This document shows positions 33,158 through 57,044 of a stretch of 64,000 bases of DNA, piece after piece. Source of the DNA: Marispirochaeta sp. GTDB lineage: Bacteria; Spirochaetota; Spirochaetia; JC444; Marispirochaetaceae. Location of the stretch: the NCBI GenBank assembly GCA_963676835.2, contig CAXXFF010000004.1, positions 517,377 to 581,376 of the forward strand. The letters are read 5' to 3'. The notes beneath the pieces are model-generated. The model saw nothing but the letters and a program-made list of their open reading frames with translations. It had not been told where the DNA came from and made no database searches. Within the stretch, counting starts at the first letter, position 1; every line of letters begins with the position of its first letter. The translations under genes and the position numbers were made by a program.

Positions 33158-33165
33158 GGAGATAC

Positions 33166-35400: not shown

Positions 35401-36330
35401 ATGAATTATAGGACTTTTTTAAGCAGATGCTTTGTACTTATATTCTTATACATTTCATCCGGGTGCGGGAATCCCGATATCAAATACATTCAGGATAATA
35501 ATATGCTGAAGGCAATCCATTACACTTCCGACACTATTGAGAATCTCAATTATACGGTTTATGAACCTGTTAATAATGAACCAGCCGGACTTCTGATCTT
35601 TTTTCATGGCGCCGGCGGGAGTGCTGATTCGTGGCAGAGCTTCGGAAGGAACATTGAAAATTACTGGAAGAAAGAAGGAATGGCTCCTCCTCTGGTCGTC
35701 TCAATTTCCCGGGGGCCAGTCTGGTTTCTCACAGGAGAAACATCTCTCATTTCCCAAGATTTAATCAATGTGGTGAGGGAAGAAATTCTTCTTCCGCTGG
35801 AAACACAATATAAACTGCCGGAAAAGCGTACATTGATCGGATTATCCATGGGAGGTTTCAACGCACTTTCCTTTTATGTCTCAGATCCAGATTATTTCAA
35901 CCGGATACTACTGATCAGTCCGGCTCTGATAACAGTTTCACCATTCAGTTCAAGTAAAGAAGTTGACGATTATGCAGCACGAACACAAGCATATTCTTTC
36001 AAGCAGAAGATAAAGACTTTACTGGCAGGGAAAAAAATCTATACCGGGAATATCAACACTATTATTTCCAACCTCAAAACCGCAGCAGCCACAGAGGAGG
36101 ACTGGGAATTAATTAATCCCTTACAAAAACTTGAAAAAATGAAGGAAATCCCCGGTAAATTTCTAATAGCCTCGGCAAAAAAGGATATCTATGGGTTTCA
36201 GGAAGGAATAGAAGAGCTCCGCCTGCTTTTAATAAAAGAAAATGCTTTAACAGATTTTATCGAGGTAGACGACACCAGGCATTTGCTTACCCTACCGGAA
36301 GAAGCGTTATCCTTTATTGCCTTTCCGTAA
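35401..36330 (+). CDS. Alpha/beta hydrolase (esterase), probably a lipoprotein
   Basis: FFHGAGG, GLSMGG nucleophile elbow, C-terminal His; ISSG-C lipobox-like; 3' end overlaps the PKS stop. Confidence 0.8.
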   Translation: MNYRTFLSRCFVLIFLYISSGCGNPDIKYIQDNNMLKAIHYTSDTIENLNYTVYEPVNNEPAGLLIFFHGAGGSADSWQSFGRNIENYWKKEGMAPPLVVSISRGPVWFLTGETSLISQDLINVVREEILLPLETQYKLPEKRTLIGLSMGGFNALSFYVSDPDYFNRILLISPALITVSPFSSSKEVDDYAARTQAYSFKQKIKTLLAGKKIYTGNINTIISNLKTAAATEEDWELINPLQKLEKMKEIPGKFLIASAKKDIYGFQEGIEELRLLLIKENALTDFIEVDDTRHLLTLPEEALSFIAFP

Positions 36331-39300
36331 TAGCTGCAATATCATTTCTGAGAATCTTTGAAATCATTTCACCGCTTATTTTGCCATGTTCACTGAGCCG
36401 GGAGATATGATTTCCCGGTACTACATGTACATCCATTGAAGGAAATATTTTCGTATCCCAACCCAGATTTTTTCTGCGACGATCCCACTCCTGGTTGACA
36501 AGCAGGGTAACTAATCCGGTATATCTCCGGGGACGATAGCTCAGTAATTTTCTCTGATAGAACAGACTGCTTTCCAGCACCTGACGGATCTGTTTCTGGC
36601 GGGGTGTGACTGCGAATAAAACATTGCCCAGTTCAGAAAATGAATGCACTATTCCTTTAATACAGTTACAGCTGCTCTGTTTGCTGAAATTACGGAGCAG
36701 GAGTTTTTTTATCCACTGTTTATAATAAAAAAGTTCTTCACTGATAAATTTTCCAAGCCCCGGACGGGGAGTATCCATAAGAACAAGATGGGCCACGGTT
36801 TCCCCGGCTGCAGACAACTGCCTGGCAATTTCTATAGCAATCATCCCGCCTACACACTCCCCCCCAATATAGTAAGGGCCTTCAGGCTGCACTTTTTTCA
36901 ACTCTTCAATATAGACTGCTGCCATAGTCTCGACATTTCGGTGCATGGTTTCGCCAAAACGAATGCCCCGGGGGCGAAAACCATAAATAGGCTGATCCTT
37001 CCCGAGAAAGCCAATAAGACTGGAAAAATAGCGAAGAAAATCCTCCTCATAGCTGGAGGTCATTTTTTCACGGTCGTAATAGCGGTTTTCATGGGCTCCT
37101 GCAACAAGAAATAATCTGGGAAGACTGCCTTTCGCCTGCACCGGAAACAGTAGGGGAAATTCATCCGCTTCGCTGCAACTGTCGGAGCATCCCTGAGAAA
37201 CAACATCCAGCATATCCTGAAAGACAGGATTAAGCAGAATATCATTCAGTCTGATCGTTATGCCGAACTCCGCGTTGATTTTTTTCACCAGCTCGGCTGA
37301 CATCAACGAATCACCGCCCAGATCAAAAAAATTGGCATCTGCAGAGATATTCTCATAGCCAAGAACCTGCTGCCAGACTTTACTTAGACGTGGTAAAACA
37401 TCTTTATTTTTATTCCCAGTATCACCTGTATCTTGTGTCAGGCTTATCTGCGAGTCCGGGTTATGAGCTGAGTTATTGATTTTAAGGTCCGGCAATATCC
37501 AGTGTTCCGTCTTTTTAAATGCGTAGGTGGGAAGATTAAGAGTTTTACCGTTCTTAATACTGTTAATTCCACCAAGATCAACACATCCACCGGCGCGCCA
37601 TATATTTCCCAATCCCTTAAGAAAGAAAAACTCTTCATTGATATCGCTTCCAGAGCCGGGCAGGGTCTGAACAAGGATTTTTTCTTTTCGGGTATCGATT
37701 GTTCTTACCAGCCGGGAAAGAACTGCTCCAGGACCAACCTCCACGTAGAGACTCTCCGACTCTATTTTAATTGATAAAATACCCTGATAAAAAAGGACAG
37801 TACTCCTTAGATGGTTCATCCAGTACTCGGGAGTATACACATACCCTTTATTCAGTTTTTCTCCACTGAGGTTACTGATAACATCCAGCTGCAAAGGGTT
37901 GAAAGAAATAGTCTGCAAAATCTCTTCAAATCCCGGCAGAATCTGATCCATCAGGCGACTGTGAAATCCGGACCGTGAAGACAGCATCTTACAGCTAATA
38001 TTTTTCTCAGTAAAAAATCCTTTGCAGTTCTCAATGGCTTCGGGCTCACCTGAAAGGACAACCTGCCCGGGACCGTTTATACCGGCAACATCCACATAAT
38101 CCGGGATTAGACCGGCAATATTTTCATATTCAGCAAAAACTGCAAGAAGCCTGCCCTCATCCGCCTGAGACATTATTTCGCCTCTACGGGAAACAAGGCG
38201 AACACCATCCTCCAGACTAAAAGCACCAGCAAGGCAGGCCGCTGTAAACTCGCCCAGGCTGTGACCTGTCATGGCATCACATTGAACACCATAAGAGAAG
38301 AGAGTTTTTGCTATTGCCCATTCAACCGAAAAAAGCAGAGGCTGAATATAGGCTGTATCCGCAAGCTTTGTCTCTGCATCCGGATCTGTTCCAAAGATTA
38401 TACTCCCGGAGTTCCAGCTGTTGACAGCATCAACAAGCTCGAGGGCAGTATCAAGAAAACCGGCAAAAACTTCATTGTTCTCATAAAGGGACCGACACAT
38501 ACCTGCATACTGTGTCCCCTGTCCGGGAAATAGAAAAATCGTATAGGGCTTTACCGTCGCTTTTCTGCTTGAACAGACAGCTTCAGACTGACCATCCTTT
38601 TCATGAAAAGGGACTGTCAGAAATCCCCGGAATGGCAATGTACTTCTACGGGTCATCATAGTCCAGACTGCATTAACCCGGTCTGTTCTACTTAAGGTAT
38701 TCAGGTAATCGGCTATTCTGTCCGCATACATTTTCAGAGATTCAGAGCTTTTCGCTGAAACAGGGCATAACATAAACCTGGCAGCGGTTGAATCTGCGCC
38801 GGTTGCCCCTCGACCAGGAGGCTCCCAGGATTCCAGGACAACATGAGCATTGGTCCCACCAATACCAAAAGAACTGACACCGGCGATCCTTCGTCCGTTC
38901 ACCGATTCCCACCTCCGGAGCTCAGTATTTACCTTAAAAGGAGTCTGCTCAATTTTCATTTCGGGGTTTGGCCGGGTGAAGTTAATGGAAGGCGGGAGTT
39001 TGCGATTTTTCAAAGATAATGCTGTTTTGATCAGCCCTATTATACCAGCTGCAGCATCAAGATGACCGATATTGGATTTTACGGAACCGATATAGCAGGG
39101 ATGCTCTCTGTTCTCATTGTTCCCAAAACTCTTTGTCAGCCCGGCAATTTCAATGGGATCACCCAGAATAGTCCCTGTTCCATGGGCTTCTACATATGAA
39201 ACCTCATCAGGGGAAATTCCTGCAAGACCAAGAGCATCATTGATAACCTCTGCCTGGCCATCGACACTGGGTGCGGTATATCCGATTTTCGCAGCGCCGT

Positions 39301-41917
39301 CATTATTAATTGCAGCTCCGCGGATCAGGGCGATAATCTGGTCGCCATTTTTTACCGCATCTTTAAGTCTCTTCAGTACAACCATACCAATTCCGGAACC
39401 GAAAACTGTACCTGAAGCATCCGCATCGAAGGGCCTGCAGAGTCCATCGGAGCTTAGAATAGTACCTTCACTGTATAGATAGCCTTCTTTAACCGGAACA
39501 TTCAGGCTTATTCCGCCACATAAAGCGACATCACATTGGTAGTTCAGAAGGCTCTGATATCCCATCTGGACAGCCACCAGAGAGGTAGAACACGCTGTCT
39601 GCACAGTAATAGCAGGACCTTTCAAGTCCAGTTTATACGCCACCCTGGAGGCCAGGAAATCATTACTGTTTCCCACCATGGTCTGAAAATCTGATACATC
39701 GTTTTTTTCAGAGCTGAAAAGAATATTTTTCAGCTGGTATTTATTCTGCCCGCAACCGGCAAAAACTGCAACTCTGCCTGATTCTCTCCCCGGGATGATA
39801 CCGGCGGACTCAAGTGCTGCCCATGAATGCTCCAGCATCAGCCGCTGCTGAGGATCCATAAAACGGGCCTCCCTTGGGGAGTATCCGAAAAACTCATTAT
39901 CAAAGAAGGGAGTAGACGGCAGCGGCCCCGATCGTCTTATATAACGGGTATCAGAAACCAGAGCAGGATCAAGCCCCTGCTCCACCAGTTCTTCAATGGT
40001 ATATTCCGACAACCCACTTCGTCCGGCAGCAAGAAGATCCCAGAACTCTTCACTGTTTTCTGCTCCGGGAACAGCGCAGGAAATTCCTGTTATAGCAAGG
40101 GTAAATTCATCATAGTCTGATTCGTTATTATTCATATTATTTTCTATGCTGCTAACAGGATTGTCTCCGAACTCAACATCAACAGCTCTGGTTAGAGCAG
40201 AAATTGTAGGATTCTGAAAAAACACAAGCGGCTCTACTGCAAACCCGAGAAAATCCGAAAGATGTTTTAACAGCCGAATTACCTGTATGGACTGCCCTCC
40301 GGCATCAAAGAAATTCACCGTATCATCAAAATCTTTATGACCCAGCTCACGTTCCCAGAGACTACGGATCATCGCATGTAAGGACAAGGGCGTTTCCACG
40401 CTTACTTGATCATATTCAATTTCCGGAAACTGCTTTCTGTCTACCTTACGGTTTGGCGTATACGGAAAATCATCGAGCCGTTTAAAAACCGCCGGAATCA
40501 TGTATGAAGGCAGCTTCTGAGAAACTGCATTATGGAGAACATCTGGCTGGAGATCCTTTTCTCCCCGGTAAAATGCGGCCAGGATAGTATCACCTTCGGG
40601 GGATTTTCTCGGAAGAACCACTGTTTCCTCCACACCCTCCACTGCCGACAGAACTGCTTCGATTTCTCCAGCATCAATTCGCAGGCCCCGCATTTTTATC
40701 TGAGTATCCCGGCGCCCCAGAAAAGAAATTGTACCATCCTCAGTTTCCCTTACATAATCACCGGTATTGTACATACCATCCCGAAAGACTTCAGCAGTCA
40801 GATCCGGATGGTGCCAGTACCCTTCCGCAAGCCCATCTCCGCTTATCCACAGAAGACCCTCTTCTCCGGTAATTACCGGCTGCTGATCTTCATCTAAAAT
40901 ATGCAAACCGGTATTATTAATTGGCATACCTATAGGAGGGGCCACCTGTAAACCCGGCTCCAGCTTGCACAGCGACGACCAGATTGTCGTTTCCGTCGGT
41001 CCATACATATTCCATACATCACATCCGGTTTTTGTAAGCTTTGCCGCAAGATCAGCAGACAAAGCTTCTCCTCCACAGAGGATCTTCAGTCCTTCTTTCC
41101 CGGAAAAACCGGCTTCCAGAAGAAGCTGCCAGACAGAAGGAGTTGTCTGAACAAGTGAAACAGCGGTGTCCTGTACAAGAGCAACGAGCGCGGCAGGGTT
41201 ATACACGGCATCTTCTCTGACAAGCCTTATACCACCGCCGCAGATAAGCGGAAGAAACAACTCAAGCCCTGCAATATCAAAGGATATAGTGGTTAAGCCA
41301 AGGACCTGATCTTCAGTAGAGATTCCCGGGTCATCCTTCATGGAAAGAAGAAAATTAAGAAAAGCCCGGTGAGAAACATAAACTCCCTTGGGATTTCCAG
41401 TTGAACCGGATGTATAGAGAATATATGCATAAGCAGAAGACTTTACAGCAGGAAGAGAGTCAGGAGACTCAACAGGTTCAGCATTGAGAGCAGAGCAGAA
41501 AACTACACCTTCAAGGTCTCTGAAGGCTGCAGGCCTTTCAGAATCATCACAAAAAATAAAATCAATACCGGAGTCCGAGGCCATAAAAGCAAGTCGGGCA
41601 GAAGGGAAAGATGGATCCAGAGGAAGATATCCTTTACCCGCTTTCTGTATGCCTATCAGGGCAGCAAGCATATACGGCGATCGCTGCATGCTCACACCAA
41701 CAAAAGGTGCATCCTCGCTGCAGTTTTCAGTTACCATTCGGGCAAACCAGTTGGAGAGCTGGTCCAGTCCGGCATAGCTAAGAGTTTCCTCTTCGAAAAT
41801 CAAAGCATCTGCTTCGGGTTGTTTTTCTACCTGATTTCCAAACAGCTCCAGCCAGGTACCGAATCCGACTTCCGGTCCATTATTAATCCATGATGATACT
41901 TTTTTTTGCAGTGACAC
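36314..41917 (-). CDS. Hybrid NRPS-PKS: A(Gly)-T-KS-AT-ACP-TE
   Basis: A: YTSGSTGNPKG, YGPTE, GDY, NRKVDR. T: FFDAGGQS. KS: DPQQR, QTACSTS, HGTGT, GHLDAAAG. AT: FPGQG, GHSLGE, GFHS. ACP: FFDLGGDS. TE: GECVGG and GNH. Confidence 0.93.
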   Translation of the reverse strand: MSLQKKVSSWINNGPEVGFGTWLELFGNQVEKQPEADALIFEEETLSYAGLDQLSNWFARMVTENCSEDAPFVGVSMQRSPYMLAALIGIQKAGKGYLPLDPSFPSARLAFMASDSGIDFIFCDDSERPAAFRDLEGVVFCSALNAEPVESPDSLPAVKSSAYAYILYTSGSTGNPKGVYVSHRAFLNFLLSMKDDPGISTEDQVLGLTTISFDIAGLELFLPLICGGGIRLVREDAVYNPAALVALVQDTAVSLVQTTPSVWQLLLEAGFSGKEGLKILCGGEALSADLAAKLTKTGCDVWNMYGPTETTIWSSLCKLEPGLQVAPPIGMPINNTGLHILDEDQQPVITGEEGLLWISGDGLAEGYWHHPDLTAEVFRDGMYNTGDYVRETEDGTISFLGRRDTQIKMRGLRIDAGEIEAVLSAVEGVEETVVLPRKSPEGDTILAAFYRGEKDLQPDVLHNAVSQKLPSYMIPAVFKRLDDFPYTPNRKVDRKQFPEIEYDQVSVETPLSLHAMIRSLWERELGHKDFDDTVNFFDAGGQSIQVIRLLKHLSDFLGFAVEPLVFFQNPTISALTRAVDVEFGDNPVSSIENNMNNNESDYDEFTLAITGISCAVPGAENSEEFWDLLAAGRSGLSEYTIEELVEQGLDPALVSDTRYIRRSGPLPSTPFFDNEFFGYSPREARFMDPQQRLMLEHSWAALESAGIIPGRESGRVAVFAGCGQNKYQLKNILFSSEKNDVSDFQTMVGNSNDFLASRVAYKLDLKGPAITVQTACSTSLVAVQMGYQSLLNYQCDVALCGGISLNVPVKEGYLYSEGTILSSDGLCRPFDADASGTVFGSGIGMVVLKRLKDAVKNGDQIIALIRGAAINNDGAAKIGYTAPSVDGQAEVINDALGLAGISPDEVSYVEAHGTGTILGDPIEIAGLTKSFGNNENREHPCYIGSVKSNIGHLDAAAGIIGLIKTALSLKNRKLPPSINFTRPNPEMKIEQTPFKVNTELRRWESVNGRRIAGVSSFGIGGTNAHVVLESWEPPGRGATGADSTAARFMLCPVSAKSSESLKMYADRIADYLNTLSRTDRVNAVWTMMTRRSTLPFRGFLTVPFHEKDGQSEAVCSSRKATVKPYTIFLFPGQGTQYAGMCRSLYENNEVFAGFLDTALELVDAVNSWNSGSIIFGTDPDAETKLADTAYIQPLLFSVEWAIAKTLFSYGVQCDAMTGHSLGEFTAACLAGAFSLEDGVRLVSRRGEIMSQADEGRLLAVFAEYENIAGLIPDYVDVAGINGPGQVVLSGEPEAIENCKGFFTEKNISCKMLSSRSGFHSRLMDQILPGFEEILQTISFNPLQLDVISNLSGEKLNKGYVYTPEYWMNHLRSTVLFYQGILSIKIESESLYVEVGPGAVLSRLVRTIDTRKEKILVQTLPGSGSDINEEFFFLKGLGNIWRAGGCVDLGGINSIKNGKTLNLPTYAFKKTEHWILPDLKINNSAHNPDSQISLTQDTGDTGNKNKDVLPRLSKVWQQVLGYENISADANFFDLGGDSLMSAELVKKINAEFGITIRLNDILLNPVFQDMLDVVSQGCSDSCSEADEFPLLFPVQAKGSLPRLFLVAGAHENRYYDREKMTSSYEEDFLRYFSSLIGFLGKDQPIYGFRPRGIRFGETMHRNVETMAAVYIEELKKVQPEGPYYIGGECVGGMIAIEIARQLSAAGETVAHLVLMDTPRPGLGKFISEELFYYKQWIKKLLLRNFSKQSSCNCIKGIVHSFSELGNVLFAVTPRQKQIRQVLESSLFYQRKLLSYRPRRYTGLVTLLVNQEWDRRRKNLGWDTKIFPSMDVHVVPGNHISRLSEHGKISGEMISKILRNDIAAITERQ

Positions 41918-41919
41918 GA

Positions 41920-42921
41920 TTATTCTGTAAACCTGAGTTCCTTTTTAATATGTTCAAACTGCTCTCTGGACTGGTCTTCGAGCTTTTCAACAGCTTCTTC
42001 TCTGGTCAGTTGATTTTTCAGTATAAGATGACTCAATTCAAGCTCATACGGGCTATAGCCATATTTTTGTGTGTGAATAAAATTATTGAAGGTATTGAGT
42101 CGACAGTTGGATGAACATCCGTCCACATCCCCCGGACGCTCCCAGCCCAGGGGAGAAATCTTCCTGACAATTTCAGCCTCGGTAATATCTTCCAGGCAGA
42201 GAAGATTGATAACCCAGGGATAGTCTGACACAAGACTCTGCAGGCGGGGCGAAATCCGCAGGTATTCGTTAACCTGACTGCCTGCCGCCGCTTCAAGCAT
42301 CGAATGGCTTCTTTTTCTGCTTTCTTCAAAAAAAGGATAATTGTTCTGGTAAAGCACACTGTTTGCGGGAATCTGTCCCAGAGTGAATCCTGCGAGAATA
42401 TAGGGAATATCTTTTTCTATTGCTGTTTTAAGAGCAATATTATTCACTATGGAAATACAGGTATTACAACCGGAGGAGATTCGTCTCAGACTGGATCGGG
42501 CATACACCTGTTCCCGTGCGCTGGTAACTATCATTTTATTGAACACCGGCTTCGACGGCCGGAAGGTAAAGTGGTCTACTCCCAGTGCATCAACAACCTT
42601 GTTTATATTCTCGAATGCCTTTGTCGAAATATAGCCGTTATCCAAAGTAAAGGAGAGAACTTTAAGATTATACTTCTCCACTGCCAGCTTGAGGGTGTAG
42701 GTGGAATCCTTTCCCCCACTGTATGCAACAACTGCATCATAGGCATGACGTCCACGCTCTTTTTCAAACATACCCTCGACAGTGTGTGCCGCTTCCGATA
42801 TTACCCGGGCTTCTGTCTTCTGAACAGTTTCGTCCCTGCAGAAATTACAGACGCCATGAGCATCAAACTCTATTCCAGGAAAAGACGACGAAAGTACACA
42901 CCTGGTACAACGTTCGGGCAT
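41920..42921 (-). CDS. Cys-rich PP-loop (adenine nucleotide alpha-hydrolase) enzyme; candidate thioamide synthetase or amidotransferase
   Basis: N-terminal CTRC...CNFC, YSGGKDS PP-loop, central CNTC, late DGCSSNC; overlaps the ACP stop. Confidence 0.75.
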   Translation of the reverse strand: MPERCTRCVLSSSFPGIEFDAHGVCNFCRDETVQKTEARVISEAAHTVEGMFEKERGRHAYDAVVAYSGGKDSTYTLKLAVEKYNLKVLSFTLDNGYISTKAFENINKVVDALGVDHFTFRPSKPVFNKMIVTSAREQVYARSSLRRISSGCNTCISIVNNIALKTAIEKDIPYILAGFTLGQIPANSVLYQNNYPFFEESRKRSHSMLEAAAGSQVNEYLRISPRLQSLVSDYPWVINLLCLEDITEAEIVRKISPLGWERPGDVDGCSSNCRLNTFNNFIHTQKYGYSPYELELSHLILKNQLTREEAVEKLEDQSREQFEHIKKELRFTE

Positions 42922-43160
42922 CAGGCACCCCTGCTTTCTGTATATGCTACAATCTTATGAACCGATCCAAAGTTATCCCGGGTCATATCGCCCTGGGAGG
43001 TCTCAACCCCATACTCTTTTTTCAAAAACGAAGAGATCTCCACAAGACCGAAAGAATCGATAATTCCCTGGTCTACCAGGGAAGAACCGAGGTCGATTTC
43101 ATCTTCCTCGACCATGAAATTACGACAAATAAAATCTATCAGCTTTGACTGAATATCCAA
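42921..43160 (-). CDS. Stand-alone acyl/peptidyl carrier protein
   Basis: 79 aa, acidic, GIIDSFG phosphopantetheine-Ser motif. Confidence 0.9.
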   Translation of the reverse strand: MDIQSKLIDFICRNFMVEEDEIDLGSSLVDQGIIDSFGLVEISSFLKKEYGVETSQGDMTRDNFGSVHKIVAYTESRGA

Positions 43161-43162
43161 GA

Positions 43163-45139
43163 TTACGCCTCTGTTACGCTAATTTTCTGTTTTCTTCGGT
43201 CAATAGTCCGGGATTCCGGATTGCGGATCCGGGACTCCAGAATCTGGTTGGATAAAATGAAAGAGATAAGCATATTATCCCTGTATCCTGCAGAGGTAAG
43301 CCCCCGACGTTCTATTTTAAACAGCAGCCTTTCAACCATTTTGCGGTCATACAGACCATACTCGTCTATTATATCGCTGTTGAGAAAGCTTTTCACTAGG
43401 TCTCCCCTTTTTCCTTGAGGAAAAAAAGAAGCAAGATCCGGAGCCATATATGGTCGCTTAGGCCGGTTCAGTATTGGTTCGGGTAGTTCTTTTTTAAAAG
43501 CCTGCTTCAGCAGATCCTTCGCGGAATATCCGTTCAGCTTCGTTTCGTCCGGCAGGGTCAGAACCCACTCAATAAGAGTATGATCAAGGAAAGGAAACCG
43601 CCCTTCCACACTGTGAGCCATGGCCATACGGTCACCCTGGGCAGAAAGCAGGTAGCCTGAAAGAAGGGTTTTCATTTCCCAATACTGGTTCCGTTTGAGT
43701 ATTGACCACTCTTTAACATGCACGGGAGTGAGAGCTTCGATTTTATCTGCGAGAGTGTCAAAATTGAACTCCAGCCCCCAGTCACGGTTGAACATCTTCG
43801 TGAGCACCTGATTGTTGCTCACCCTCATGGCAAGGCCGGCAAGGGGGCCGGAAAAACGGTCAAGGAATCCTTCGTAATACATCTTCAGAAAGCCAAGCTG
43901 CTCCGCATCTCTATAATGGTCCAGATGGGGATAGAGCTGTCCGAGGATACTCATAACAGCTGTATCTGACAACCCGTTTTTCCAGGAGCTCAGCAGTTTG
44001 AGTTCCTTGTAGGTATCATAACCAAACAGGATTTCGTCTGCCGCCTCGCCGGTAAGAACTACCTTTATATCCTGTTCCCGGACCTTTTTCGACAGCATGT
44101 AAAGCGGCACCGGAGCTGTCCGGAATATTGGACGCTCAAAGTGTCCTGCGGCATCTACAAAATTCTCCGCGATATCTGTTCCATCAACGGTTACGGAATA
44201 GTGATCAGAATCTATGGAATTCACCATCATCTGCTGAAATTCCGATTCATCAAATCCGGTATCGGTAAAGGCAACGGAAAAACTTTTAAACCGGTGATTA
44301 TTAATCTTTTTTGCAAGGTAGGAAGTAACCGAAGAGTCGAGACCACCACTTAAATAGCATCCGACGGGGACATCACTTCTGAGGCGCAGTTTAACTGATT
44401 CTTCCAGCTTCTGCCGAAAAAGAGCAACCTGATCCGGAAGGCACAGGCTTGTTTCCGGCCCGGATTCCTCTCCTAGGGTATAATAAGCTTCCGGTCCGGA
44501 TGTTCCGTTATGGGTAAAGTACTGGTAATGCCCGCCTTCCAGGGAAAAAATACCCTTGAAAACCGTATTGCCGCCAAGGGTATTCCAGAGCAGACCATGT
44601 TCCAGAAGATTCTCCGGCGACCACTGCCTCCGTCCTTCACCAATATGATCAAAAACCCTCAGTTCCGATGAAAAGTAAACTGCACCGGATGAAGCAGGAT
44701 AATAGTAGAGAGGACGTATGCCATACCGATCCCGGGCGGCCAGAAGTTTCTGCTGTTTTTTATCCCAGAAGAGAAGGGCAAACTGGCCGTTGAAGCGCCT
44801 GAAAGCATCCGGGCCCCACCACTCTATTGCCCGCTGAACCACCTCAGTATCCGATGTTGTTTCAAAACGGGCGCCAAGGTTCTGGAGTTCTGCTTTCAGT
44901 TCAATATAGTTATACACTTCTCCGTTATAGACCAGTACAGACCTGTCGGAGATCATAGGCTGATGACCACCGGCAAGATCAATGATACTGAGGCGGGAAT
45001 GCCCAAGACCTATACCGGGAGCACCATAACTGCCATACTCATCGGGACCCCTGTGGTCGATGTATGGGATAAGTGATTCTGCTAGTGATTTCAATTCTCC
45101 GGCTGGTGCCGGTTTCAGTATTCCTACTATTCCGCACAT
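43163..45139 (-). CDS. asnB: Asparagine synthase (glutamine-hydrolysing)-like amidotransferase
   Basis: N-terminal MCGIVG Ntn Cys, HRGPD, RLSIID, NGEVYN, LSGGLDSS, TGEAADE, RFPFLD. Confidence 0.92.
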   Translation of the reverse strand: MCGIVGILKPAPAGELKSLAESLIPYIDHRGPDEYGSYGAPGIGLGHSRLSIIDLAGGHQPMISDRSVLVYNGEVYNYIELKAELQNLGARFETTSDTEVVQRAIEWWGPDAFRRFNGQFALLFWDKKQQKLLAARDRYGIRPLYYYPASSGAVYFSSELRVFDHIGEGRRQWSPENLLEHGLLWNTLGGNTVFKGIFSLEGGHYQYFTHNGTSGPEAYYTLGEESGPETSLCLPDQVALFRQKLEESVKLRLRSDVPVGCYLSGGLDSSVTSYLAKKINNHRFKSFSVAFTDTGFDESEFQQMMVNSIDSDHYSVTVDGTDIAENFVDAAGHFERPIFRTAPVPLYMLSKKVREQDIKVVLTGEAADEILFGYDTYKELKLLSSWKNGLSDTAVMSILGQLYPHLDHYRDAEQLGFLKMYYEGFLDRFSGPLAGLAMRVSNNQVLTKMFNRDWGLEFNFDTLADKIEALTPVHVKEWSILKRNQYWEMKTLLSGYLLSAQGDRMAMAHSVEGRFPFLDHTLIEWVLTLPDETKLNGYSAKDLLKQAFKKELPEPILNRPKRPYMAPDLASFFPQGKRGDLVKSFLNSDIIDEYGLYDRKMVERLLFKIERRGLTSAGYRDNMLISFILSNQILESRIRNPESRTIDRRKQKISVTEA

Positions 45140-45186: not shown

Positions 45187-48100
45187 TTATCGCGTGCGTC
45201 TGTTTCTTCCAGCCATACGCTTCATCTGCTCACGCTGAACGGATGCTCTTCCTGCTTCAGATGATTCATCTTTCCCGCCGATAAGCGCAGCCTGAGCTGC
45301 TACTGTAGGATACCGGAAAAGATCCATCAACGATACAGATTTCCCCGTAAGACCTTGCAATTTTTTCTGGAGTACCGGAAGCTGAAGGGAATGACCGCCG
45401 AGGTCGAAAAAGCTTACGCCGCTGTCAACCTCCGGAACATTGAGCAGCTCGCACCAGATCTTTTCAATCCCGGAAAATATATCAGTCATTTTTTCTGAAG
45501 AATGCGAATCCAAGGCCTGCTCTGCTTCCGTGAAATTCCCCGCAGCCAGAGCCTTACGATCAATTTTACCACTGGGCAGCATGGGAAAAGTATCAATAAA
45601 ATGGAACTTATCGGGAATCATATATCCCGGAAGCCTGCGTATCAGTTCAGTTTTAACCGTGGAGGGGTTCTCTCCCTCTTTTACTGCAAGATAGGCATGG
45701 AGAGTCATATCCCCCGAGCTTTTTTCCGGGATCAGTACAACCGCAATTGATACAGAATCGATAGTCTCAAGGTTCCGTTCAATTTCTGCAAGCTCAATTC
45801 TTATACCGTTAATCTTTACCTGGGTATCCATTCGGCCGGAGTACCAGAAAACACCCTCATTATCGTAATAGCCGATGTCACCGGTACAATAGACTGTTTC
45901 CTGTCCCCATCCCCAATCGCCCCGGATAAAAGCTTTCTCTGTTAGTTCCGGATTGTTTATATACCCCGGTGAAACATTTACACCGGCTATGGCAATTTCC
46001 CCCCGTACCCAGGAAGAGCATAGCCTGCGGTATTTATCGAGAACCAGAATCCGTGTATTTGCGATCGGCCGGCCGATGGGGATCTGTTCTCTTTCCAGAT
46101 CTGCTTCTGTACATTCCCAGGCTGTGACATCTATAGATGCCTCCGTAGGGCCGTAGAGATTATGAAGCCTGACTCCTCCGGTTTTTTCCCCAGTCTCCCG
46201 CACCAGAGAAACATCCAAAGCCTCTCCCGAACAGATAATACCCTTGAGATCCGGAAAGTGAAAATTCCCTGCGTTATCAAGAAACTTGCGCAGAAGTGAG
46301 GGCACAAAATGAATATAGCTGATTTTCTGCTCTCTTACGGTATCCGCAAGGTAGACATCATCAAGATGTCGTCCCTGTTCCGGGATAAACAGTGACGCCC
46401 CGAAGAGAAATGGCCAGAATATTTCCCACATAGAGACATCGAAAGTATAGGGCACCTTGTGAATAAGGGTATCACCCGGTGCAAGAGGAAAGGTTTCCTG
46501 CATCCACCAGAGCCTGTTTACCATTCCCTGCCCCGGAATCGCCACTCCCTTTGGATTTCCGGTGCTTCCGGAGGTGTAGAGGACTGCTATTGTCTCATGA
46601 TCGGAAATTTCACTCTGCTCCTGGTTTTCAGGCACAAAAGCTGTCAGTATATCCGGAGTGAATAATCCTGAAGTATTCTGAAACCGCTGCTGAATACGGG
46701 GTTCGATTATTCCGAATACGGCTCCTGAATTGGAAAAAATATACTCTACCCTGGAAACCGGCCAGTTAGGATCTACCGGAACATATGCATTACCGGAAAC
46801 TACAATGGCGTGAATAAGCGTCAGTCTCTCTAAGCTGTTATCCAGAGCCACAAGGATTTTCCTGCCTCTGCCGGCTTTTTCCTTTAACAATTGGCTCAGG
46901 TTGCGAACATTACGCTCCAGATCCTTATAGGTTAATGCCTGCTCTTCGTCGGTGAGAGCTATCTTGCTCCCATACCGGCTGTAGGACGATAAAAGATGCT
47001 CCCTGAACGGGATCTCCAGGGGGTATTTTCTGGTCCGTTCATTATTCTGATATTTTAAAAGCGACAGCTGATCCTGCATAATCAGCGGAAGATCTTTCAC
47101 TACTGTTTCAGGTTTGGTTCCAGATACTGCAACAATATTCTGCCATATCCGGGACCACCCCTCGGCCTGGTCCTGAGTAAAAGCAGAGGTGTTGAACTCT
47201 ATCCGTGCAGATAGTCCGTCCGCATTGTCCCAATACGTAAGGAACAGATCCATCTGTGCGCCTTCGGGGCGAATGTTTATTGGTGTGACGCTGCATCCGT
47301 CAAGGTTAAGCATAAAGGGCTCTTCACGGGTAAAGCCGGCCTGCAGAAAATAAGGGATCCGTGGATCACGGGACCCCTTATAGAGTCCGGCAATTTCCAG
47401 GAAGGGCAGCTCCTGATTCCGGTGCAGCAGCAGCATATCCTTTCGAATCTGATTGTACAGATGCAGAAAGCTCTCTTCCGGATTAATGGTGACTTTTAAA
47501 GGAAGAATGTTAACAAAGGGCCCATACATATTTTCCCGTTCAGGGTTCCTGCGGTTGGGAAATGGTACCCCGATAAAGAACTCCAGCTGACCGCTTAAAG
47601 CATTAAGCAGGAGAGCATATGAGGTCAGCAGATGAAGAAAGGGTTGAAGTTCTCGTTCTGATCCCTGCTGTAAAGCAGTATTAGTATTTTCATTTACCTT
47701 AAAAAAGAAGGTGTTCCCTTCCCCAGTAAAATAATCTCTGGAAGATCTGGATGGGGGAAGTACCAACGAATCCGGCGGGTTTTCAAGATACTTTCTCCAG
47801 AAACCTTCCTGCCTTTTTACCTTGTCATCCTGTTCTCCCAGACCTGCTTCAGTGTATGGAATCAGTTGTATATCCAACTTTTTTCCGTTGTATTCAGAGG
47901 ATATCAGACGTGAAAGCAGCTCTTTTGAATGAAGATCTATGCCGGTATGGTGCTGCACTGCACAAAAATAAAAACATGACTCGGTTAATTTAAAAAGACA
48001 GGCTTCAATTCTTTCAGGTTCATCGGCATCAAGCGGCAAATCCGCCACTTGCCGGATACCCGCAAGAGCTTCTTCTTCGGTGAAACATTGGTCTGTATAT

Positions 48101-48279
48101 AAGTTAAGAGCAATTCTTATATCGGTTATTCTTTTGCCCGCTTTTTGCAGAGAATCACAAAACTTACGTACATCAAGCTTACCCTCTATTCTTACAGCAA
48201 GAATAATATTGTAGGCCCGTGATTGTGGGTAAAATATTGAAGCAGTTTTAAAATGGTTCTGGATTCCGTTACTCAGCAT
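45187..48279 (-). CDS. Single-module NRPS: C-A(Ser)-T
   Basis: HHTGID condensation motif, YTSGSTGNPKG, FDVSMWE, NLYGPTE, TGD, SGKIDR, FFDLGGHS; basic C-terminal docking-like tail. Confidence 0.92.
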   Translation of the reverse strand: MLSNGIQNHFKTASIFYPQSRAYNIILAVRIEGKLDVRKFCDSLQKAGKRITDIRIALNLYTDQCFTEEEALAGIRQVADLPLDADEPERIEACLFKLTESCFYFCAVQHHTGIDLHSKELLSRLISSEYNGKKLDIQLIPYTEAGLGEQDDKVKRQEGFWRKYLENPPDSLVLPPSRSSRDYFTGEGNTFFFKVNENTNTALQQGSERELQPFLHLLTSYALLLNALSGQLEFFIGVPFPNRRNPERENMYGPFVNILPLKVTINPEESFLHLYNQIRKDMLLLHRNQELPFLEIAGLYKGSRDPRIPYFLQAGFTREEPFMLNLDGCSVTPINIRPEGAQMDLFLTYWDNADGLSARIEFNTSAFTQDQAEGWSRIWQNIVAVSGTKPETVVKDLPLIMQDQLSLLKYQNNERTRKYPLEIPFREHLLSSYSRYGSKIALTDEEQALTYKDLERNVRNLSQLLKEKAGRGRKILVALDNSLERLTLIHAIVVSGNAYVPVDPNWPVSRVEYIFSNSGAVFGIIEPRIQQRFQNTSGLFTPDILTAFVPENQEQSEISDHETIAVLYTSGSTGNPKGVAIPGQGMVNRLWWMQETFPLAPGDTLIHKVPYTFDVSMWEIFWPFLFGASLFIPEQGRHLDDVYLADTVREQKISYIHFVPSLLRKFLDNAGNFHFPDLKGIICSGEALDVSLVRETGEKTGGVRLHNLYGPTEASIDVTAWECTEADLEREQIPIGRPIANTRILVLDKYRRLCSSWVRGEIAIAGVNVSPGYINNPELTEKAFIRGDWGWGQETVYCTGDIGYYDNEGVFWYSGRMDTQVKINGIRIELAEIERNLETIDSVSIAVVLIPEKSSGDMTLHAYLAVKEGENPSTVKTELIRRLPGYMIPDKFHFIDTFPMLPSGKIDRKALAAGNFTEAEQALDSHSSEKMTDIFSGIEKIWCELLNVPEVDSGVSFFDLGGHSLQLPVLQKKLQGLTGKSVSLMDLFRYPTVAAQAALIGGKDESSEAGRASVQREQMKRMAGRNRRTR

Positions 48280-48339: not shown

Positions 48340-49035
48340 ATGGTTAATATCTTTTTGATTAACACAAGTGGAGGCATGCCGGATTCAGTTTATGAAACCT
48401 GGCTTTCCTGTCTTCCCCCGGAAAAACAGGAAAAAGTAAGGAAAAAGATTCGAATACCGGACCGCATTACGACTCTGGCCACTCATTACATGCTCAGATT
48501 TGTACTGGAGCATTTTTTGCATATCCCCGGGGAGAAACAAAAATATTCAACAGGGAAATATGGCAAGCCTTTTCTGTTGAATTACCCTGATGTCTATTTC
48601 AGTCTTTCCCATTCGTCAGGATGGGGGGTTGTTGCTGTTTCTGATTCAGAAGTTGGAGTAGATATAGAAGAGTATCGTAACTTTAAGTTAAACGATTTTA
48701 AAAATATACTCAATGAAAACGAAATGCGGTATATTTTAGATACAAACAGCAGTTATGGTACTTCTGCGGACAGGTTCTTTCAGATATGGACAATGAAAGA
48801 GGCTTATCTAAAAGCTATGGGCACAGGATTCTTAAATGCCCAAAATAACAATAGTCTGGTGCAAATGGTAAACAATGACTACATTATAAAAAACCAGATA
48901 AACAATTTCTCTGTAAATAATATTCTAAAGAATGCTTCTCTATTTTTAAGCGTCTGCTCAAGTGGTACAAAGCAGATATTCACATCAACTCCATTAGAAA
49001 TGCAGAAGGTATTTACCAGTCAGGTTACACAGTAG
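48340..49035 (+). CDS. Sfp-type 4'-phosphopantetheinyl transferase
   Basis: GKYGKP, FSLSHS, VGVDIE, WTMKEAYLKAMGTG; divergent from the NRPS. Confidence 0.92.
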   Translation: MVNIFLINTSGGMPDSVYETWLSCLPPEKQEKVRKKIRIPDRITTLATHYMLRFVLEHFLHIPGEKQKYSTGKYGKPFLLNYPDVYFSLSHSSGWGVVAVSDSEVGVDIEEYRNFKLNDFKNILNENEMRYILDTNSSYGTSADRFFQIWTMKEAYLKAMGTGFLNAQNNNSLVQMVNNDYIIKNQINNFSVNNILKNASLFLSVCSSGTKQIFTSTPLEMQKVFTSQVTQ

Positions 49036-50032
49036 ATACTTTTTTATTACCGACAATAAAAGGCATCCATCTATTTACAATATGTACCACTGGTATCAAT
49101 ATCAGTATCTGAAGGAGTGAAGCAACTGCTGCATAGAGGAATGTATCCATGTGGAAAACGCTAATTTTATTGAGCAAAGGTTTAACAAAGGTATAAGCTC
49201 TCATATGGAAAACGTATATAAGCAGCGAGTTTGCCGCAAGGTAAAAAGATATTTTATTAGTCGGTATTAAAGTAGATACTATAAGGTAAAAAAAGATGCC
49301 TGCAAATGCTGAAAGGTAAAAATAGGGAATAATGTGAAAAATACCCTGATATACATCTATTCTGCCGTTATTGATTAGAAAGAAGAATACATTGACAAAC
49401 AAGAATATGCCAGCGCCGGGAACCTTTTTATAAATCCCCAGCCTTTCGACTTCCTTGAATTGGGGTTGAAAATAAAAACCTGAAAGAAAGAATACAATCA
49501 TTGAGGGGACAATATTTAAACTCCAGGGCAGATTAAATTCGTGCGTAATGGTCCAAATATGAGACGCAACAAGCAGTAATGATAGCATTAAGACCATCAG
49601 CCATGGTCTAAGCTTTAAAATGCCAAATGCCCCTATGTGTACAAGGTACAAACAGGGTAGAAACCACATTTGTACGCCCCATCCCATATACTTAAGCTGC
49701 CCCTGGGCATAAAAGATTCCGACAAGTCCTTTTGCATAGGACGATTCTTTCAGTACTCCCGGTTCGACTAGGGATAAAACTGCCCAGAAAAGATATAACA
49801 AAATAGACAGCAGCAGGTATGGAATAATAAGCCGTTTAAACTTCGACACGGCCAGGGATTTAAAAGTTGTATGTTGTCTATTTTTAAACAGAAACCCGGA
49901 GATGAAGAAAAAAAGAGGCATATGAAAGGAATAGATATAGTAATATAGGAAGTGGCGGTGGTGCCCAAGTATTACAAACACGAGCCCGAATGCCTTAAGT
50001 GTGTCTATTGCACTATACCGCTCAGATTTCAT
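49025..50032 (-). CDS. Acyltransferase_3 family membrane O-acyltransferase
   Basis: IDTLKAFGLVFVILGH, YSFHMPLFFFISG, KFKRLIIPY, MWFLPCLY; about 10 TM helices. Confidence 0.9.
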   Translation of the reverse strand: MKSERYSAIDTLKAFGLVFVILGHHRHFLYYYIYSFHMPLFFFISGFLFKNRQHTTFKSLAVSKFKRLIIPYLLLSILLYLFWAVLSLVEPGVLKESSYAKGLVGIFYAQGQLKYMGWGVQMWFLPCLYLVHIGAFGILKLRPWLMVLMLSLLLVASHIWTITHEFNLPWSLNIVPSMIVFFLSGFYFQPQFKEVERLGIYKKVPGAGIFLFVNVFFFLINNGRIDVYQGIFHIIPYFYLSAFAGIFFYLIVSTLIPTNKISFYLAANSLLIYVFHMRAYTFVKPLLNKISVFHMDTFLYAAVASLLQILILIPVVHIVNRWMPFIVGNKKVSTV

Positions 50033-50042
50033 ATAGAGTATT

Positions 50043-50873
50043 TTATTTTTCGAGACCTGCCAGGAACTTTATAAGTTCTGAGGCAACAAGCTTCTGTCCT
50101 TCCTCATTAAGATGCCCGCCATCCCAGGTATATAAGGGGTAAAGGGCAGGCACCATCTTTCCGTTTGCTTCCGCATAGTATTCTTTACCGTCTGGTGTAG
50201 TAGATTCAATTTCAGCCAGATCGAATAATCGTCCTGTACCGGATTTTGAATCTCTTAGTAAAGTATTAAAGATATTACGGGGAATATTTTCAACGGTACC
50301 AGTGTCGACTTTCTTTAAGCGGCCGAGAATATTTTTTGCCCAGTTTTTTATGCCTTTATCCATTGGAGAGGTTAGCGGCATGGTAACATAGACAAATGTA
50401 GTTTCAGGATACTGCTTCTCTAATGTTTCCATAGTCGACACATATTCTTTATAAATCTCTTCCGGAGAATTATCGCGGTATGTGTCTACATAGCAGAATT
50501 TCATTAAGGCAATATCCGGTAGGTTTTCTTGATTATTTGAGAAGAAGGTTTGAAAATCGGATATCTTAGTTGATGGGTATTCGTTTTCTCCGATGTTTTG
50601 ATGGATAATCCCTAACTCTAAAACATTCTCTTGGTTGGGATTATATTCTTCAATTTTAATACTTTTATCTAAACCATTCGATACATAATATATGCCGGAT
50701 AAAATATTTCGCCCCACTGATTGATGTCCGAAAAAAATTGCTTTTTTACCAAGATTGTCCAAAGCGGAAACAATATACTCTCTATTTTTCATATCACCAC
50801 CTACACAGGATACAGTTATAACAGACATTAAAATTACCAATAAAGCCAAAATATATTTAGCAAGTTTTTTCAT
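50043..50873 (-). CDS. Lipoprotein with SGNH-like hydrolase/acyltransferase fold
   Basis: TVS-C lipobox; FFGHQSVG, MKFCYVD, LFDLAEIES, DGGHLNEEG (DxxH). Confidence 0.7.
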   Translation of the reverse strand: MKKLAKYILALLVILMSVITVSCVGGDMKNREYIVSALDNLGKKAIFFGHQSVGRNILSGIYYVSNGLDKSIKIEEYNPNQENVLELGIIHQNIGENEYPSTKISDFQTFFSNNQENLPDIALMKFCYVDTYRDNSPEEIYKEYVSTMETLEKQYPETTFVYVTMPLTSPMDKGIKNWAKNILGRLKKVDTGTVENIPRNIFNTLLRDSKSGTGRLFDLAEIESTTPDGKEYYAEANGKMVPALYPLYTWDGGHLNEEGQKLVASELIKFLAGLEK

Positions 50874-50877
50874 CTTC

Positions 50878-51474
50878 CTATACCTTGTAGTTTACATGCT
50901 CTTGCGCCGCATTATCTGTCGCCACTATTCTCCCAGGAACCCCGAAAACTGTAGCATTAGAAGGTATGTCTTTTATAACGACTGTATTTGCACCAATGAC
51001 AACATTATCACCTATTGTAACATTGCCCAATATTTTTGCACCGGGGCCTATATATACATTATCGCCAACTTTTTTAGGAGTTCCTTTATGTGGACCTCTA
51101 TTAACCCACCCAAAAATTACTCCCTGAGCTATAGTCAGATTTTTCCCCACAACAAGACCTGGACTAAAAACCGTACCGCCAGGATGAGCAATCCTAAGAC
51201 CAGGACCGACTTGGGCAGTAACGTGAATATCTATACCGTATTTTATATCTGTACTTCTTTTTAATGTTTTTATTAAAGGATATATCGTAAACTTTGTTAT
51301 TTTTTTTGTTCGTAAAAAGCTAGCCCAACGATATAGGATTATTGATCTCACCCATGGGTAGTGATAGTATACATTTAGCACATTGTATAAAAATCTGTTA
51401 GAAGACGCTCTGGACATTCGAAAAATATCTTTTTTAATTAAGTATTTTGTTTTTCTAAATCCTGACTCCTTCAC
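50878..51474 (-). CDS. Serine O-acetyltransferase-like left-handed beta-helix acetyltransferase
   Basis: GIDIHVTAQVGPGLRIAH, VGDNVYIGPGAKILGNVTIGDNVVIGAN, GVPGR. Confidence 0.88.
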   Translation of the reverse strand: MKESGFRKTKYLIKKDIFRMSRASSNRFLYNVLNVYYHYPWVRSIILYRWASFLRTKKITKFTIYPLIKTLKRSTDIKYGIDIHVTAQVGPGLRIAHPGGTVFSPGLVVGKNLTIAQGVIFGWVNRGPHKGTPKKVGDNVYIGPGAKILGNVTIGDNVVIGANTVVIKDIPSNATVFGVPGRIVATDNAAQEHVNYKV

Positions 51475-51491: not shown

Positions 51492-52625
51492 CTAGATATC
51501 TTTCTTCACTATATCAACTATCTGTTTTGCTCTAGTTTCCCATCTAAAACTTTCCAAAGCACGGGCTTTGCCATATGCACCCATTTCCTTTGCTTTTTCG
51601 GGTGTAGATAGTATCTTGTTTATACAAAATGCTACTTCCTCAATATTTGAAGAATCTACAAGATAACCGGTCTTCCCATCCTCTATTGCATCTGGTACAC
51701 CACCAGCATTACCGCCTATAACTGGTAATCCATATAGATTTGCTTCCAAGAAAACGATCCCAAAACCTTCCATATCTCCGTTTTCTAAATCTCTATTTGG
51801 CATTATAAACAACTGTGCGTTTTCTAAATACATTCTTTTTTCATGATCCGATACATAGCCAGTAAAAAGTACATTATCAGTAACGCCTAATTCTTTCACT
51901 AAGCTTTCTAAACGAAAACGATCTGGACCATCACTGGTTATAACGTAAATAATGTTTGGAAAATTTTTGACTACCATAGGTAACGCCTTTATAACAGTAT
52001 CAAAACCTTTTCGTTCAATAAGCCTGCCAACTGACACCAAAACTCTCTTATTCCTCAATAAAGCTGGAGTTTCATATTTGGTAGAACAATTAGTCTCTCC
52101 CCCTTCAATTGTTACACCAGGAGTTATACGATATATTTTCTCTTTTTTAACACCTATTTTATTAACGATAGTTTCCGTTTTCTTACTATTGGCAAATATA
52201 CCAGTTGAATTTGATAAAATATGTCGTTTTAACTTTTCATGTCTTGCTTTTCTCTTCAGTGAGACGTCAAGACCGTGAACGTAAACAAAAAAAGGGATTT
52301 TCATAATCTTCGCAACTCTAAATGCGTAAACCGTTAACCTATCATAAGTGTTACAAACAACAATGTCTGGTCTTAATAGATTAAACTCCCTATAAAAATA
52401 GTTATACAAAATTATCTTTTTTATGAACGCATTAATTCGAGGGTCTATGTTTCTTCTAACGACCTTATACTCTTGCTTATAATCAAAACTATTATCACCA
52501 ATGTTTGTGAAAAGAACAACATCATTATTCAACAAACTTAGTTCATGCATCAAACAATGTGTTAGTTCTGCAATTCCACCTTTATTTGGCTTAGAGTCTA
52601 ATCCTATAAACAAAATTTTCATCAT
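51492..52625 (-). CDS. GT4 glycosyltransferase
   Basis: VGRLIERKG, EGFGIVFLEA, GGVPDAIEDGKTG. Confidence 0.92.
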   Translation of the reverse strand: MMKILFIGLDSKPNKGGIAELTHCLMHELSLLNNDVVLFTNIGDNSFDYKQEYKVVRRNIDPRINAFIKKIILYNYFYREFNLLRPDIVVCNTYDRLTVYAFRVAKIMKIPFFVYVHGLDVSLKRKARHEKLKRHILSNSTGIFANSKKTETIVNKIGVKKEKIYRITPGVTIEGGETNCSTKYETPALLRNKRVLVSVGRLIERKGFDTVIKALPMVVKNFPNIIYVITSDGPDRFRLESLVKELGVTDNVLFTGYVSDHEKRMYLENAQLFIMPNRDLENGDMEGFGIVFLEANLYGLPVIGGNAGGVPDAIEDGKTGYLVDSSNIEEVAFCINKILSTPEKAKEMGAYGKARALESFRWETRAKQIVDIVKKDI

Positions 52626-54130: not shown

Positions 54131-54389
54131 AAATAATTATTCCTTTTGTACAACCTATGAATTATTTAGTTTTTTACTCTATCGTTAATCTTCAGAAAAG
54201 TACTATACTTAGATATTTTCTCTAAGATTTTATATACTCTTATAGACAACATATTCCTCATTAACATATACATAGGTTAGACATCAACTCAAAAAAGTGT
54301 TGGTTTATATCATAACCCAGAAGATCTTAACGAGGATTTACCATCTACTTTATTTTTTACTTTTTATCAAATCATCATGATCAAAAGTA

Positions 54390-55619: not shown

Positions 55620-56024
55620 AATACCCTTTCTAAACCCTTATAGATCAACAAAACACTCCCGTCCATAAATAAATCCCCCAAAATACTAATTTAGTATTTT
55701 ATATCATTGTAAAATTTTTAATTTTGAATTTAATCAGTACCGAATCACAGCTCTTTACCTTAACAGACTTACACTATCAAAAACTTAAGGAATAAAATAC
55801 ATTTATGTTAGTTTGTAATATTACAAATGAAGTTGATATTCTATACGATATAATCCTAATATCATGCAGAAACACAATCCGTAAAATTACACAAAAAAAT
55901 ATTATTACTTGAAAATAATTTCTTAGATAAAAAAATGATAGTAAGTAATAATATTTTCATATGAAAAATAGGATTGAACTCAGTTAGTAACTATTTATCA
56001 TTTAGGGGTATTGCTTATTGCATT

Positions 56025-57038: not shown

Positions 57039-57044
57039 GTAAAA

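Follow-up and report, generated by a model that had tools for sequence, protein, structure and literature searches.

A conserved AsnB, carrier protein and PP-loop enzyme cassette in a spirochaete polysaccharide locus, with a probable free-standing relative of the AMDH amide dehydratases

Introduction

A single family of PP-loop (AANH) enzymes seems to yield amidines (WbuX), thioamides (CtaC), nitriles or iso-amides (AMDH) and perhaps oxazoles (OzmP). The AMDH domain of CysH, from cystobactamid biosynthesis, turns asparagine bound to a thiolation (T) domain into beta-cyanoalanine in vitro and also isomerises it, and it purifies dark brown; adenylation (A) domains that host an AMDH are Asn-specific, and the cystobactamid study left the role of metal open (in the sections consulted of PMC7966384). 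AlbIV, from albicidin biosynthesis, is a further amide-to-nitrile case (PMC8949500, in part), and ATP-dependent steps of this kind are also known from ArtA/NitB, CalN and the AsnB-like PesC (PMC13060819, in part). Here we describe a triad of genes for an AsnB-type amidotransferase, a carrier protein and a PP-loop enzyme in a 64,000-nucleotide stretch of a Marispirochaeta sp. genome (contig CAXXFF010000004.1, positions 517,377 to 581,376), which we call the window. The PP-loop protein is likely a free-standing relative of AMDH amide dehydratase, and we found no description of a free-standing cassette of AsnB, carrier and AANH enzyme in the open-access literature searched.

An initial annotation, made from the sequence alone, had likened the triad to closthioamide-type machinery and proposed a thioamide or amidine; it did not consider a nitrile outcome. 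A small free-standing enzyme with its own carrier and an amide-making partner makes a simple test case for what determines the outcome within this family, and for what the metal does in AMDH.

A conserved three-gene cassette

The triad occupies the minus strand, with its reading frames where they had first been annotated:

43163..45139, minus strand: AsnB-type glutamine amidotransferase, 658 aa, with N-terminal Cys2 and the SGGLDS loop intact (Pfam GATase_7 and Asn_synthase)
42921..43160, minus strand: free-standing carrier protein with the motif GIIDSF, 79 aa, TTG start (Pfam PP-binding)
41920..42921, minus strand: AANH (PP-loop) enzyme with a predicted NASAT fold and AMDH/CtaC-type CxxC and late Cys, 333 aa

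The AsnB stop and the carrier start are two bases apart, and the carrier stop and PP-loop start have one base in common (TGATG), in agreement with the spacing first reported. AsnB scores 441 bits against TIGR01536 (cut-off 267.1), and its C2 is unchanged across 25 orthologues. The carrier is a type II protein of the DltC/PigG/AmcB kind, for which the AmcB and DltC models score best yet stay under their cut-offs; its top structure matches are peptidyl carrier protein (PCP) and D-alanyl carrier structures. In the PP-loop protein we find C5xxC8, C25xxC28, SGGKDS at residues 68-73, C152xxC155 (CNTC) and C269-SSN-C273, the same motifs that the initial annotation had listed. Its C25, C28, C152, C155 and C273 are present in all 120 nearest homologues, and C5, C8 and C269 in 119 of them.

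The triad is a real, conserved cassette. We gathered 69 related loci by the PP-loop protein alone, without a formal null; several are near-duplicates, so the counts that follow are not independent. Of the 60 loci that extend 350 nt or more upstream, 58 have the carrier; of the 45 that extend 1000 nt or more, 44 have AsnB. HisH/HisF partners, whose absence had already been remarked, occur in none of the 69 loci and in none of the 39 window proteins covered by our Pfam scan; the single HisH/HisF pair of this genome is on a different contig. Among the 25 loci of at least 10 kb, phmmer detected A domains in 22, condensation (C) domains in 22, ketosynthase (KS) domains in 20, an esterase in 12, a methyltransferase in 7 and polysaccharide-type genes in 5. 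Several loci show a Ser module only.

One search returned 952 homologues of the PP-loop protein. The closest named relative of the locus, in a Spirochaetales genome, is 70% identical and has the same gene order. The distribution is patchy: the cassette is found in 1 of 31 genomes among relatives, and in a survey of the phylum any family member occurs in 23 of 301 genomes, with the close form in three of those, this genome included. Named hosts include Desulfoluna, Carboxylicivirga, Prolixibacteraceae, Marinilabiliaceae and Polyangiales. The cassette would mark an undescribed family of nonribosomal peptide synthetase-polyketide synthase (NRPS-PKS) products in sulfate reducers, Bacteroidota and spirochaetes.

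Family, fold and closest relatives of the PP-loop protein

The top family of the PP-loop protein is TIGR03573 (WbuX), at 146.5 bits and below the cut-off of 203.2. Because it falls under that cut-off and is found without HisH/HisF, it does not appear to be a typical WbuX. Its predicted structure (pLDDT 89.6) is closest in fold to LpNASAT (8wex; Z 23.3, root-mean-square deviation 4.1, 312 aligned residues, 20% identity), above a background of NcsA (Z 12.0), LarE (11.7), TtuA (10.6) and YcfA (10.5). In PDB sequence searches with the protein and with a profile, 8wex was the one clear match, and YcfA was not listed at E values up to 10; matches in the ESM Atlas were unnamed, QueC-labelled or NASAT clusters only. 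With WbuX, WbpG and LpNASAT (TIGR03573, PDB 8WEX) the protein shares its fold, the N-terminal zinc tetracysteine, the PP-loop and a polysaccharide context. It differs from them in its carrier linkage and in central and late Cys residues that most of them lack: in three of four HisH/HisF-linked proteins D-H / H-x-E-S replaces the CxxC and late Cys, and one such amidotransferase (locus L073) retains these residues.

YcfA, the 6-thioguanine enzyme put forward as a parallel in the initial annotation, resembles the protein in the AANH core only. It is tied at Z 10.5 with many unrelated AANH entries, has 222 residues against 333, is 12% identical and acts on guanine nucleotides, drawing on cysteine and the C-S lyase YcfC (PMC12494993, in part); no pyridoxal phosphate (PLP) lyase appeared in the Pfam scan of the window.

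Around the shared motifs, the local sequence of AMDH is closer than that of CtaC. AMDH domains (CysH, AlbIV) have about 340 residues with SGGKDSTY, a central CxxC and a late S[ST]NC. CysH, as the query, has two N-terminal CxxC motifs, SGGKDS and a late STNC, its central CxxC reading CNGC, and the alignment printed in PMC7966384, a source used in part, contains stretches nearly identical to the query (SGGKDSTY, FTLDNGYIS, LGVDH and RP.D..STNC). The remaining core motifs are not matched, with GLSRGQ, GRSTNC and YSWDVR in AMDH against GFTLGQ, GCSSNC and YELELSH in the query, and AMDH forms an insertion within an Asn-activating A domain, whereas the query is a free-standing 333-residue reading frame that has AsnB and a type II carrier as its partners.

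A profile of the query clade returned 4673 matches from 1.84 billion representatives. Among the best 150 of these were 45 multidomain proteins of at least 800 residues; the AMDH core motifs occur in 23 of the 45, and a second motif type, which retains the extra Cys, in 18. Against the 23 AMDH-type domains the query is 27-37% identical, a range biased upward because they were picked as top matches to the query profile, and it scores 183 bits on the AMDH-type profile; four HisH/HisF-linked amidotransferases reach 66-83 bits on that profile, and their identity to the query is 23-25%. The initial annotation had suggested a phylogeny against WbuX. In three quick trees, built on subsets of 58, 44 and 20 rows after removal of fragments and duplicates (25 of 113 rows dropped), the query clade stands apart from HisH/HisF-linked WbuX, and in the two that include AMDH-type rows the query clade, a sister clade and the embedded domains fall together (SH-aLRT 93 and 90). 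We conclude from these comparisons that the protein probably works in the manner of AMDH or CtaC, yet it lacks defining features of AMDH proper, the cta cluster, YcfA and WbuX. A member of the AMDH/CtaC/NASAT group that stands alone, is coupled to AsnB and a carrier, and feeds a Ser/Gly NRPS-PKS would be a new arrangement.

The second motif type defines a further kind of NRPS-embedded AANH domain (GFCS[ST]NC), present in P0247, P0249, P0257, P0270 and 14 more proteins within Asn-, Gln- or Asp-type A domains. It appears to be a sister to AMDH and is uncharacterised as far as the literature was searched.

A primary amide as the probable substrate

DLT opens the A domain that hosts the embedded relative in 22 of the 23 AMDH-type proteins and in 12 of the 18 of the second type; we take DLT to mark Asn/Asp, and DAS-Q to mark Gln. 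As these hosts are mostly Asn-type, the embedded relatives would act on primary amides. Free-standing relatives adjoin AsnB, a maker of primary amides, and on both grounds the substrate of the PP-loop enzyme is likely a primary amide. AMDH acts on such an amide bound to a carrier, and the same would hold for the query. A Streptomyces plasmid locus combines asnB, A-T, an AANH-C fusion and a racemase.

The sister clade (33-38% identity) keeps the carrier and often AsnB, with an AMP-forming ligase in place of the NRPS-PKS. These ligases are either VinN-like (Asp-type, in two loci) or of a second type that is 42-44% identical to this genome's single ligase of that type, for which malonyl- and oxalyl-CoA synthetases come out as the top single-domain structures. 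VinN binds methyl-Asp and Asp (PMC11253843, in part). A precedent for a malonamyl starter made by an AsnB-type enzyme is OxyD (PMC13607094, in part), which resembles the role envisaged for the window's AsnB in supplying a PKS with an amide starter, with no later AANH step.

Elsewhere in the genome, a second module (G000:C2:1-7840; L115:1-7840) contains a NadE-like gene (PRK00876), a carrier, a sugar transferase, AsnB, an acyl-AMP ligase at 5775-7307 of C2 and an ACPS-like gene. It stands at the very start of contig C2, and the window ends contig C4; to judge by position and strand, it may continue the window's polysaccharide locus across the contig gap and supply the loader.

Proposed chemistry

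The best account of this family is that all its branches adenylate an amide oxygen, after which the fates diverge, and the homology and predicted fold of the PP-loop enzyme make it likely that it, too, O-adenylates an amide. For the triad we tentatively propose, by analogy with AMDH and at a little under even confidence, that AsnB amidates a carrier-bound diacid or Asp, and that the PP-loop enzyme adenylates this amide and eliminates it to a nitrile or rearranges it. A nitrile or AMDH-type rearrangement is favoured because the primary amide made by AsnB can eliminate without an added nucleophile, as it does in the nearest characterised relative. The part of the initial annotation that had AsnB form an amide on a carrier, with an AANH enzyme acting on it, survives; the thioamide that was to follow is not indicated by the pattern.

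Three neighbouring genes enter the scheme, two of which flank the triad within a polysaccharide locus (Pfam):

45187..48279, minus strand: NRPS C-A-T, with a Ser-like A domain and HHxxxDL in the C domain
36314..41917, minus strand: A-T-KS-AT-T-TE (AT, acyltransferase; TE, thioesterase), with a Gly-like A domain, no C domain, no ketoreductase (KR) or dehydratase domain, and a Cys at the TE nucleophile site (GGECVGG)
48340..49035, plus strand: Sfp-type phosphopantetheinyl transferase (ACPS and AASDHPPT_N)

From the observed gene content, linkage, motifs, fold and relationships we infer each chemical step as follows. The phosphopantetheinyl transferase would prime the carriers, and an enzyme outside the triad (candidates are an acyl-AMP ligase elsewhere in the genome or the PKS AT) would load the free carrier with a dicarboxylic acid or aspartate. 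AsnB would then amidate the free carboxyl with nitrogen from glutamine, and the PP-loop enzyme would adenylate the amide oxygen, loss of AMP giving a nitrile of the cyanoacetyl or cyanoalanyl type or, alternatively, rearrangement giving an iso-amide, which CysH also makes. The C-A(Ser)-T module would take this starter, Gly and one malonate would be added, and the Cys-type TE would release the product or hand it on, possibly onto polysaccharide. That last transfer is the weakest link, drawn as it is from the gene context of a minority of loci.

Several observations weigh against this proposal. The window contains no loader for the carrier, and the Gly module lacks a C domain, which makes the order of the assembly line uncertain. 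CysH itself was compared by eye only, and the choice of the 23 AMDH proxies as top matches to the query profile inflates their similarity. The query stands free of any A domain and keeps the extra Cys269, where AMDH has Arg. CtaC, which has the same three-Cys spacing and was not among the fetched proteins compared, could be as near a relative. An approximately unbiased (AU) test does not reject a grouping of the query with WbuX (p 0.128). As for transfer to polysaccharide, polysaccharide-type genes occur in just 5 of the 25 long loci.

Alternative outcomes

The first alternative is a thioamide synthetase in which C152, C155 and C273 would hold a [4Fe-4S] cluster and sulfide would replace the oxygen of an adenylated, carrier-bound amide, as in CtaC (Ccel_3258). 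We consider this unlikely, although the resemblance is real: both are AANH proteins with a PP-loop, dependent on carriers, from a family rich in anaerobes, and the tested CtaC residues D77/S78/C154/C157/C284, like D72/S73/C152/C155/C273 of the query, have a spacing of the TtcA/TtuA kind. The named hosts of the query clade belong mostly to groups that we take to be anaerobic. The query also has the extra conserved Cys269, and the context of CtaC C284, read from primers (SSGCKL), resembles its SSNCRL. In CtaC, C154, C157 and C284 are Fe-S ligands; the enzyme requires its substrate to be bound to a PCP, and many of its homologues are encoded close to NRPS/PKS genes in anaerobes (PMC6772006, in part). 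However, the combination of CxxC and late Cys is not diagnostic of thioamide formation, because it is common to the nitrile-forming AMDH and to 116 of 126 scorable representatives, and the N-terminal tetracysteine is uninformative on sulfur because it is a zinc site in NASATs (PMC10607449, in part). The initial annotation's use of this pattern as a signature of sulfur insertion is correct as to the CtaC-like spacing and is not borne out as to its meaning; the motif also persists in the HisH/HisF-linked L073 protein. The Cys motif does not separate the outcomes of this family, and we would caution against naming thioamide clusters by it alone.

The genomic context adds to this. The cta cluster has ATP-grasp, PLP decarboxylase, papain-like transacylase and transglutaminase partners, none of which appeared in the Pfam scan of the window, where AsnB is found instead. 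Two free carriers are indeed on the CtaA-K list in the consulted part of PMC6772006, but the asparagine-synthetase homologue that the initial annotation had placed in the closthioamide cluster is absent from that list, and the main text of PMC7183216 nowhere uses the word 'asparagine'. Known CtaC substrates are secondary amides, which are unable to dehydrate to a nitrile, whereas AsnB yields a primary amide. Neither a sulfur carrier nor a desulfurase turned up in a crude scan of the 69 loci, a weak point since cta also lacks them. Around the PP-loop and CxxC the primer-derived CtaC sequence differs from that of the query; a regular-expression search found the primer-derived motif set in no fetched protein, a homologue search from P0276, which is CtaC-like at two motifs, did not recover CtaC, and Table S5 of PMC6772006 lists no accession that was displayed for 10 clusters.

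Less probable still is an amidine synthetase of the WbuX kind, in which ammonia from the AsnB glutaminase would replace the amide oxygen on a carrier-bound unit or an N-acyl sugar. The top family and fold matches and the polysaccharide locus point this way, the AU test does not reject the WbuX grouping, and glutaminase-fused NASAT forms exist (L072, L114), so HisH/HisF is dispensable. Set against them are the score below the TIGR03573 cut-off, the D-H / H-x-E-S residues in three of the four HisH/HisF-linked proteins, the near-invariant linkage to a carrier, and an AsnB that retains its own synthetase site.

An oxazole-forming cyclodehydratase, which would activate the amide of an N-acyl-Gly-ketide for cyclisation, is improbable. 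The PP-loop gene lies 2 nt upstream of an A(Gly)-T-KS gene without KR, recalling ozmO-ozmP-ozmQ, and OzmP, CongE and PtxD are likewise SGGKDS enzymes beside Gly A-T and KS, but their oxazole role is itself only proposed (PMC4504003, PMC5764310 and PMC9057759, each in part). Their clusters, compared here by description and not by sequence, have a formylation domain and neither AsnB nor a free carrier, whereas the Pfam scan found no formylation domain on the window's Gly module. The tight partner of the PP-loop gene is the free carrier, the triad also occurs without NRPS/PKS (L063), sister loci have it with a ligase only, and several loci show a Ser module only. Any other outcome is similarly improbable.

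The surrounding locus

The A domain of the C-A-T gene has Txo2, Txo1, FscH and EntF, all Ser, as top single-A structures, and that of the A-T-KS-AT-T-TE gene has DhbF and 4ZXH (Gly). By motif the KS of the latter is intact, and its AT is presumably malonyl-like. C domains of the cassette read HHxxxDL, not HHxxxDG, in most related loci. The G-E-C-V-G nucleophile Cys of the TE (window 36314-41917) recurs in 4 of 15 TE matches of related loci (L001, L023, L024, L035), and a Cys-type TE may be a transacylase. The other features of the locus are:

49025..51474, minus strand: AT3 membrane acyltransferase, SGNH/GDSL protein and hexapeptide acyltransferase, a candidate acyl-transfer set (Pfam)
35401..36330, plus strand: alpha/beta esterase (Pfam), the type counted in 12 of the 25 related loci of at least 10 kb
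34443..35348, minus strand: methyltransferase-like protein (Pfam), with orthologues of 40-49% identity beside the triad in 7 of the 25 long loci
51492..54130, minus strand: GT4 glycosyltransferase and Wzx flippase, part of the polysaccharide locus around the cassette (Pfam and family models)
31943..34383, minus strand: Wza-like export (Poly_export/SLBB) and Wzz-like chain-length (GNVR) genes at the far edge of that locus (Pfam)

The acyl-transfer set may act together with the cassette, and the product may be a small peptide-polyketide with a nitrile starter that decorates surface polysaccharide. The fuller version, in which a cassette widespread among anaerobes builds on carrier proteins an acyl-Ser-(Gly)-ketide capped by a nitrile or thioamide, and the Cys-type TE and the AT3, SGNH and hexapeptide acyltransferases move it onto exopolysaccharide, is doubtful; if true, the exopolysaccharide would bear a peptide with a reactive nitrile or thioamide group. 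In AlmE-type glycylation of lipopolysaccharide, an NRPS-like A domain likewise serves surface-glycan modification, with no later AANH step. We rejected the exopolysaccharide link as a universal feature, given its 5 of 25 long loci in the phmmer count; a Pfam scan of 90 selected reading frames adds polysaccharide-type genes in L044 and L104. A structure search found no solved relative of the methyltransferase-like protein, and a BioC/BioH-like role for it was weighed and left unsupported.

Related loci and minor observations

Among related loci, the triad of L063:5352-12169 has no NRPS/PKS with it and precedes genes for an AAA_28 kinase-like protein, an AvrD-family protein, an MFS transporter and a porin, and L103:275-19860 carries both versions in tandem on a single contig, the NRPS-PKS triad and a sister triad with a VinN-like ligase. 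On a Bacillus thuringiensis plasmid (L069:10834-23721), a hydrolase, a carrier and a sister-clade AANH gene are found with two ligases, a type II KS set, asnB, a phosphopantetheinyl transferase and a radical SAM gene. A Ralstonia plasmid (L112:8159-13125) has a 531-aa reading frame of GxQ triplet repeats, then a related AANH gene and a radical SAM gene, and looks like a ribosomal-peptide modification locus. In L070:8436-10951 a related AANH gene adjoins a PLP enzyme and an S66 peptidase, reminiscent of YcfA/YcfC.

Within the window, GC content falls to 28-35% at 54000-58000, against about 46% at the triad, which suggests a mosaic polysaccharide locus. A Fic-domain gene (14417-15553) and a HipA-like gene (21796-23028) are ordinary toxin-antitoxin-type genes unrelated to the triad.

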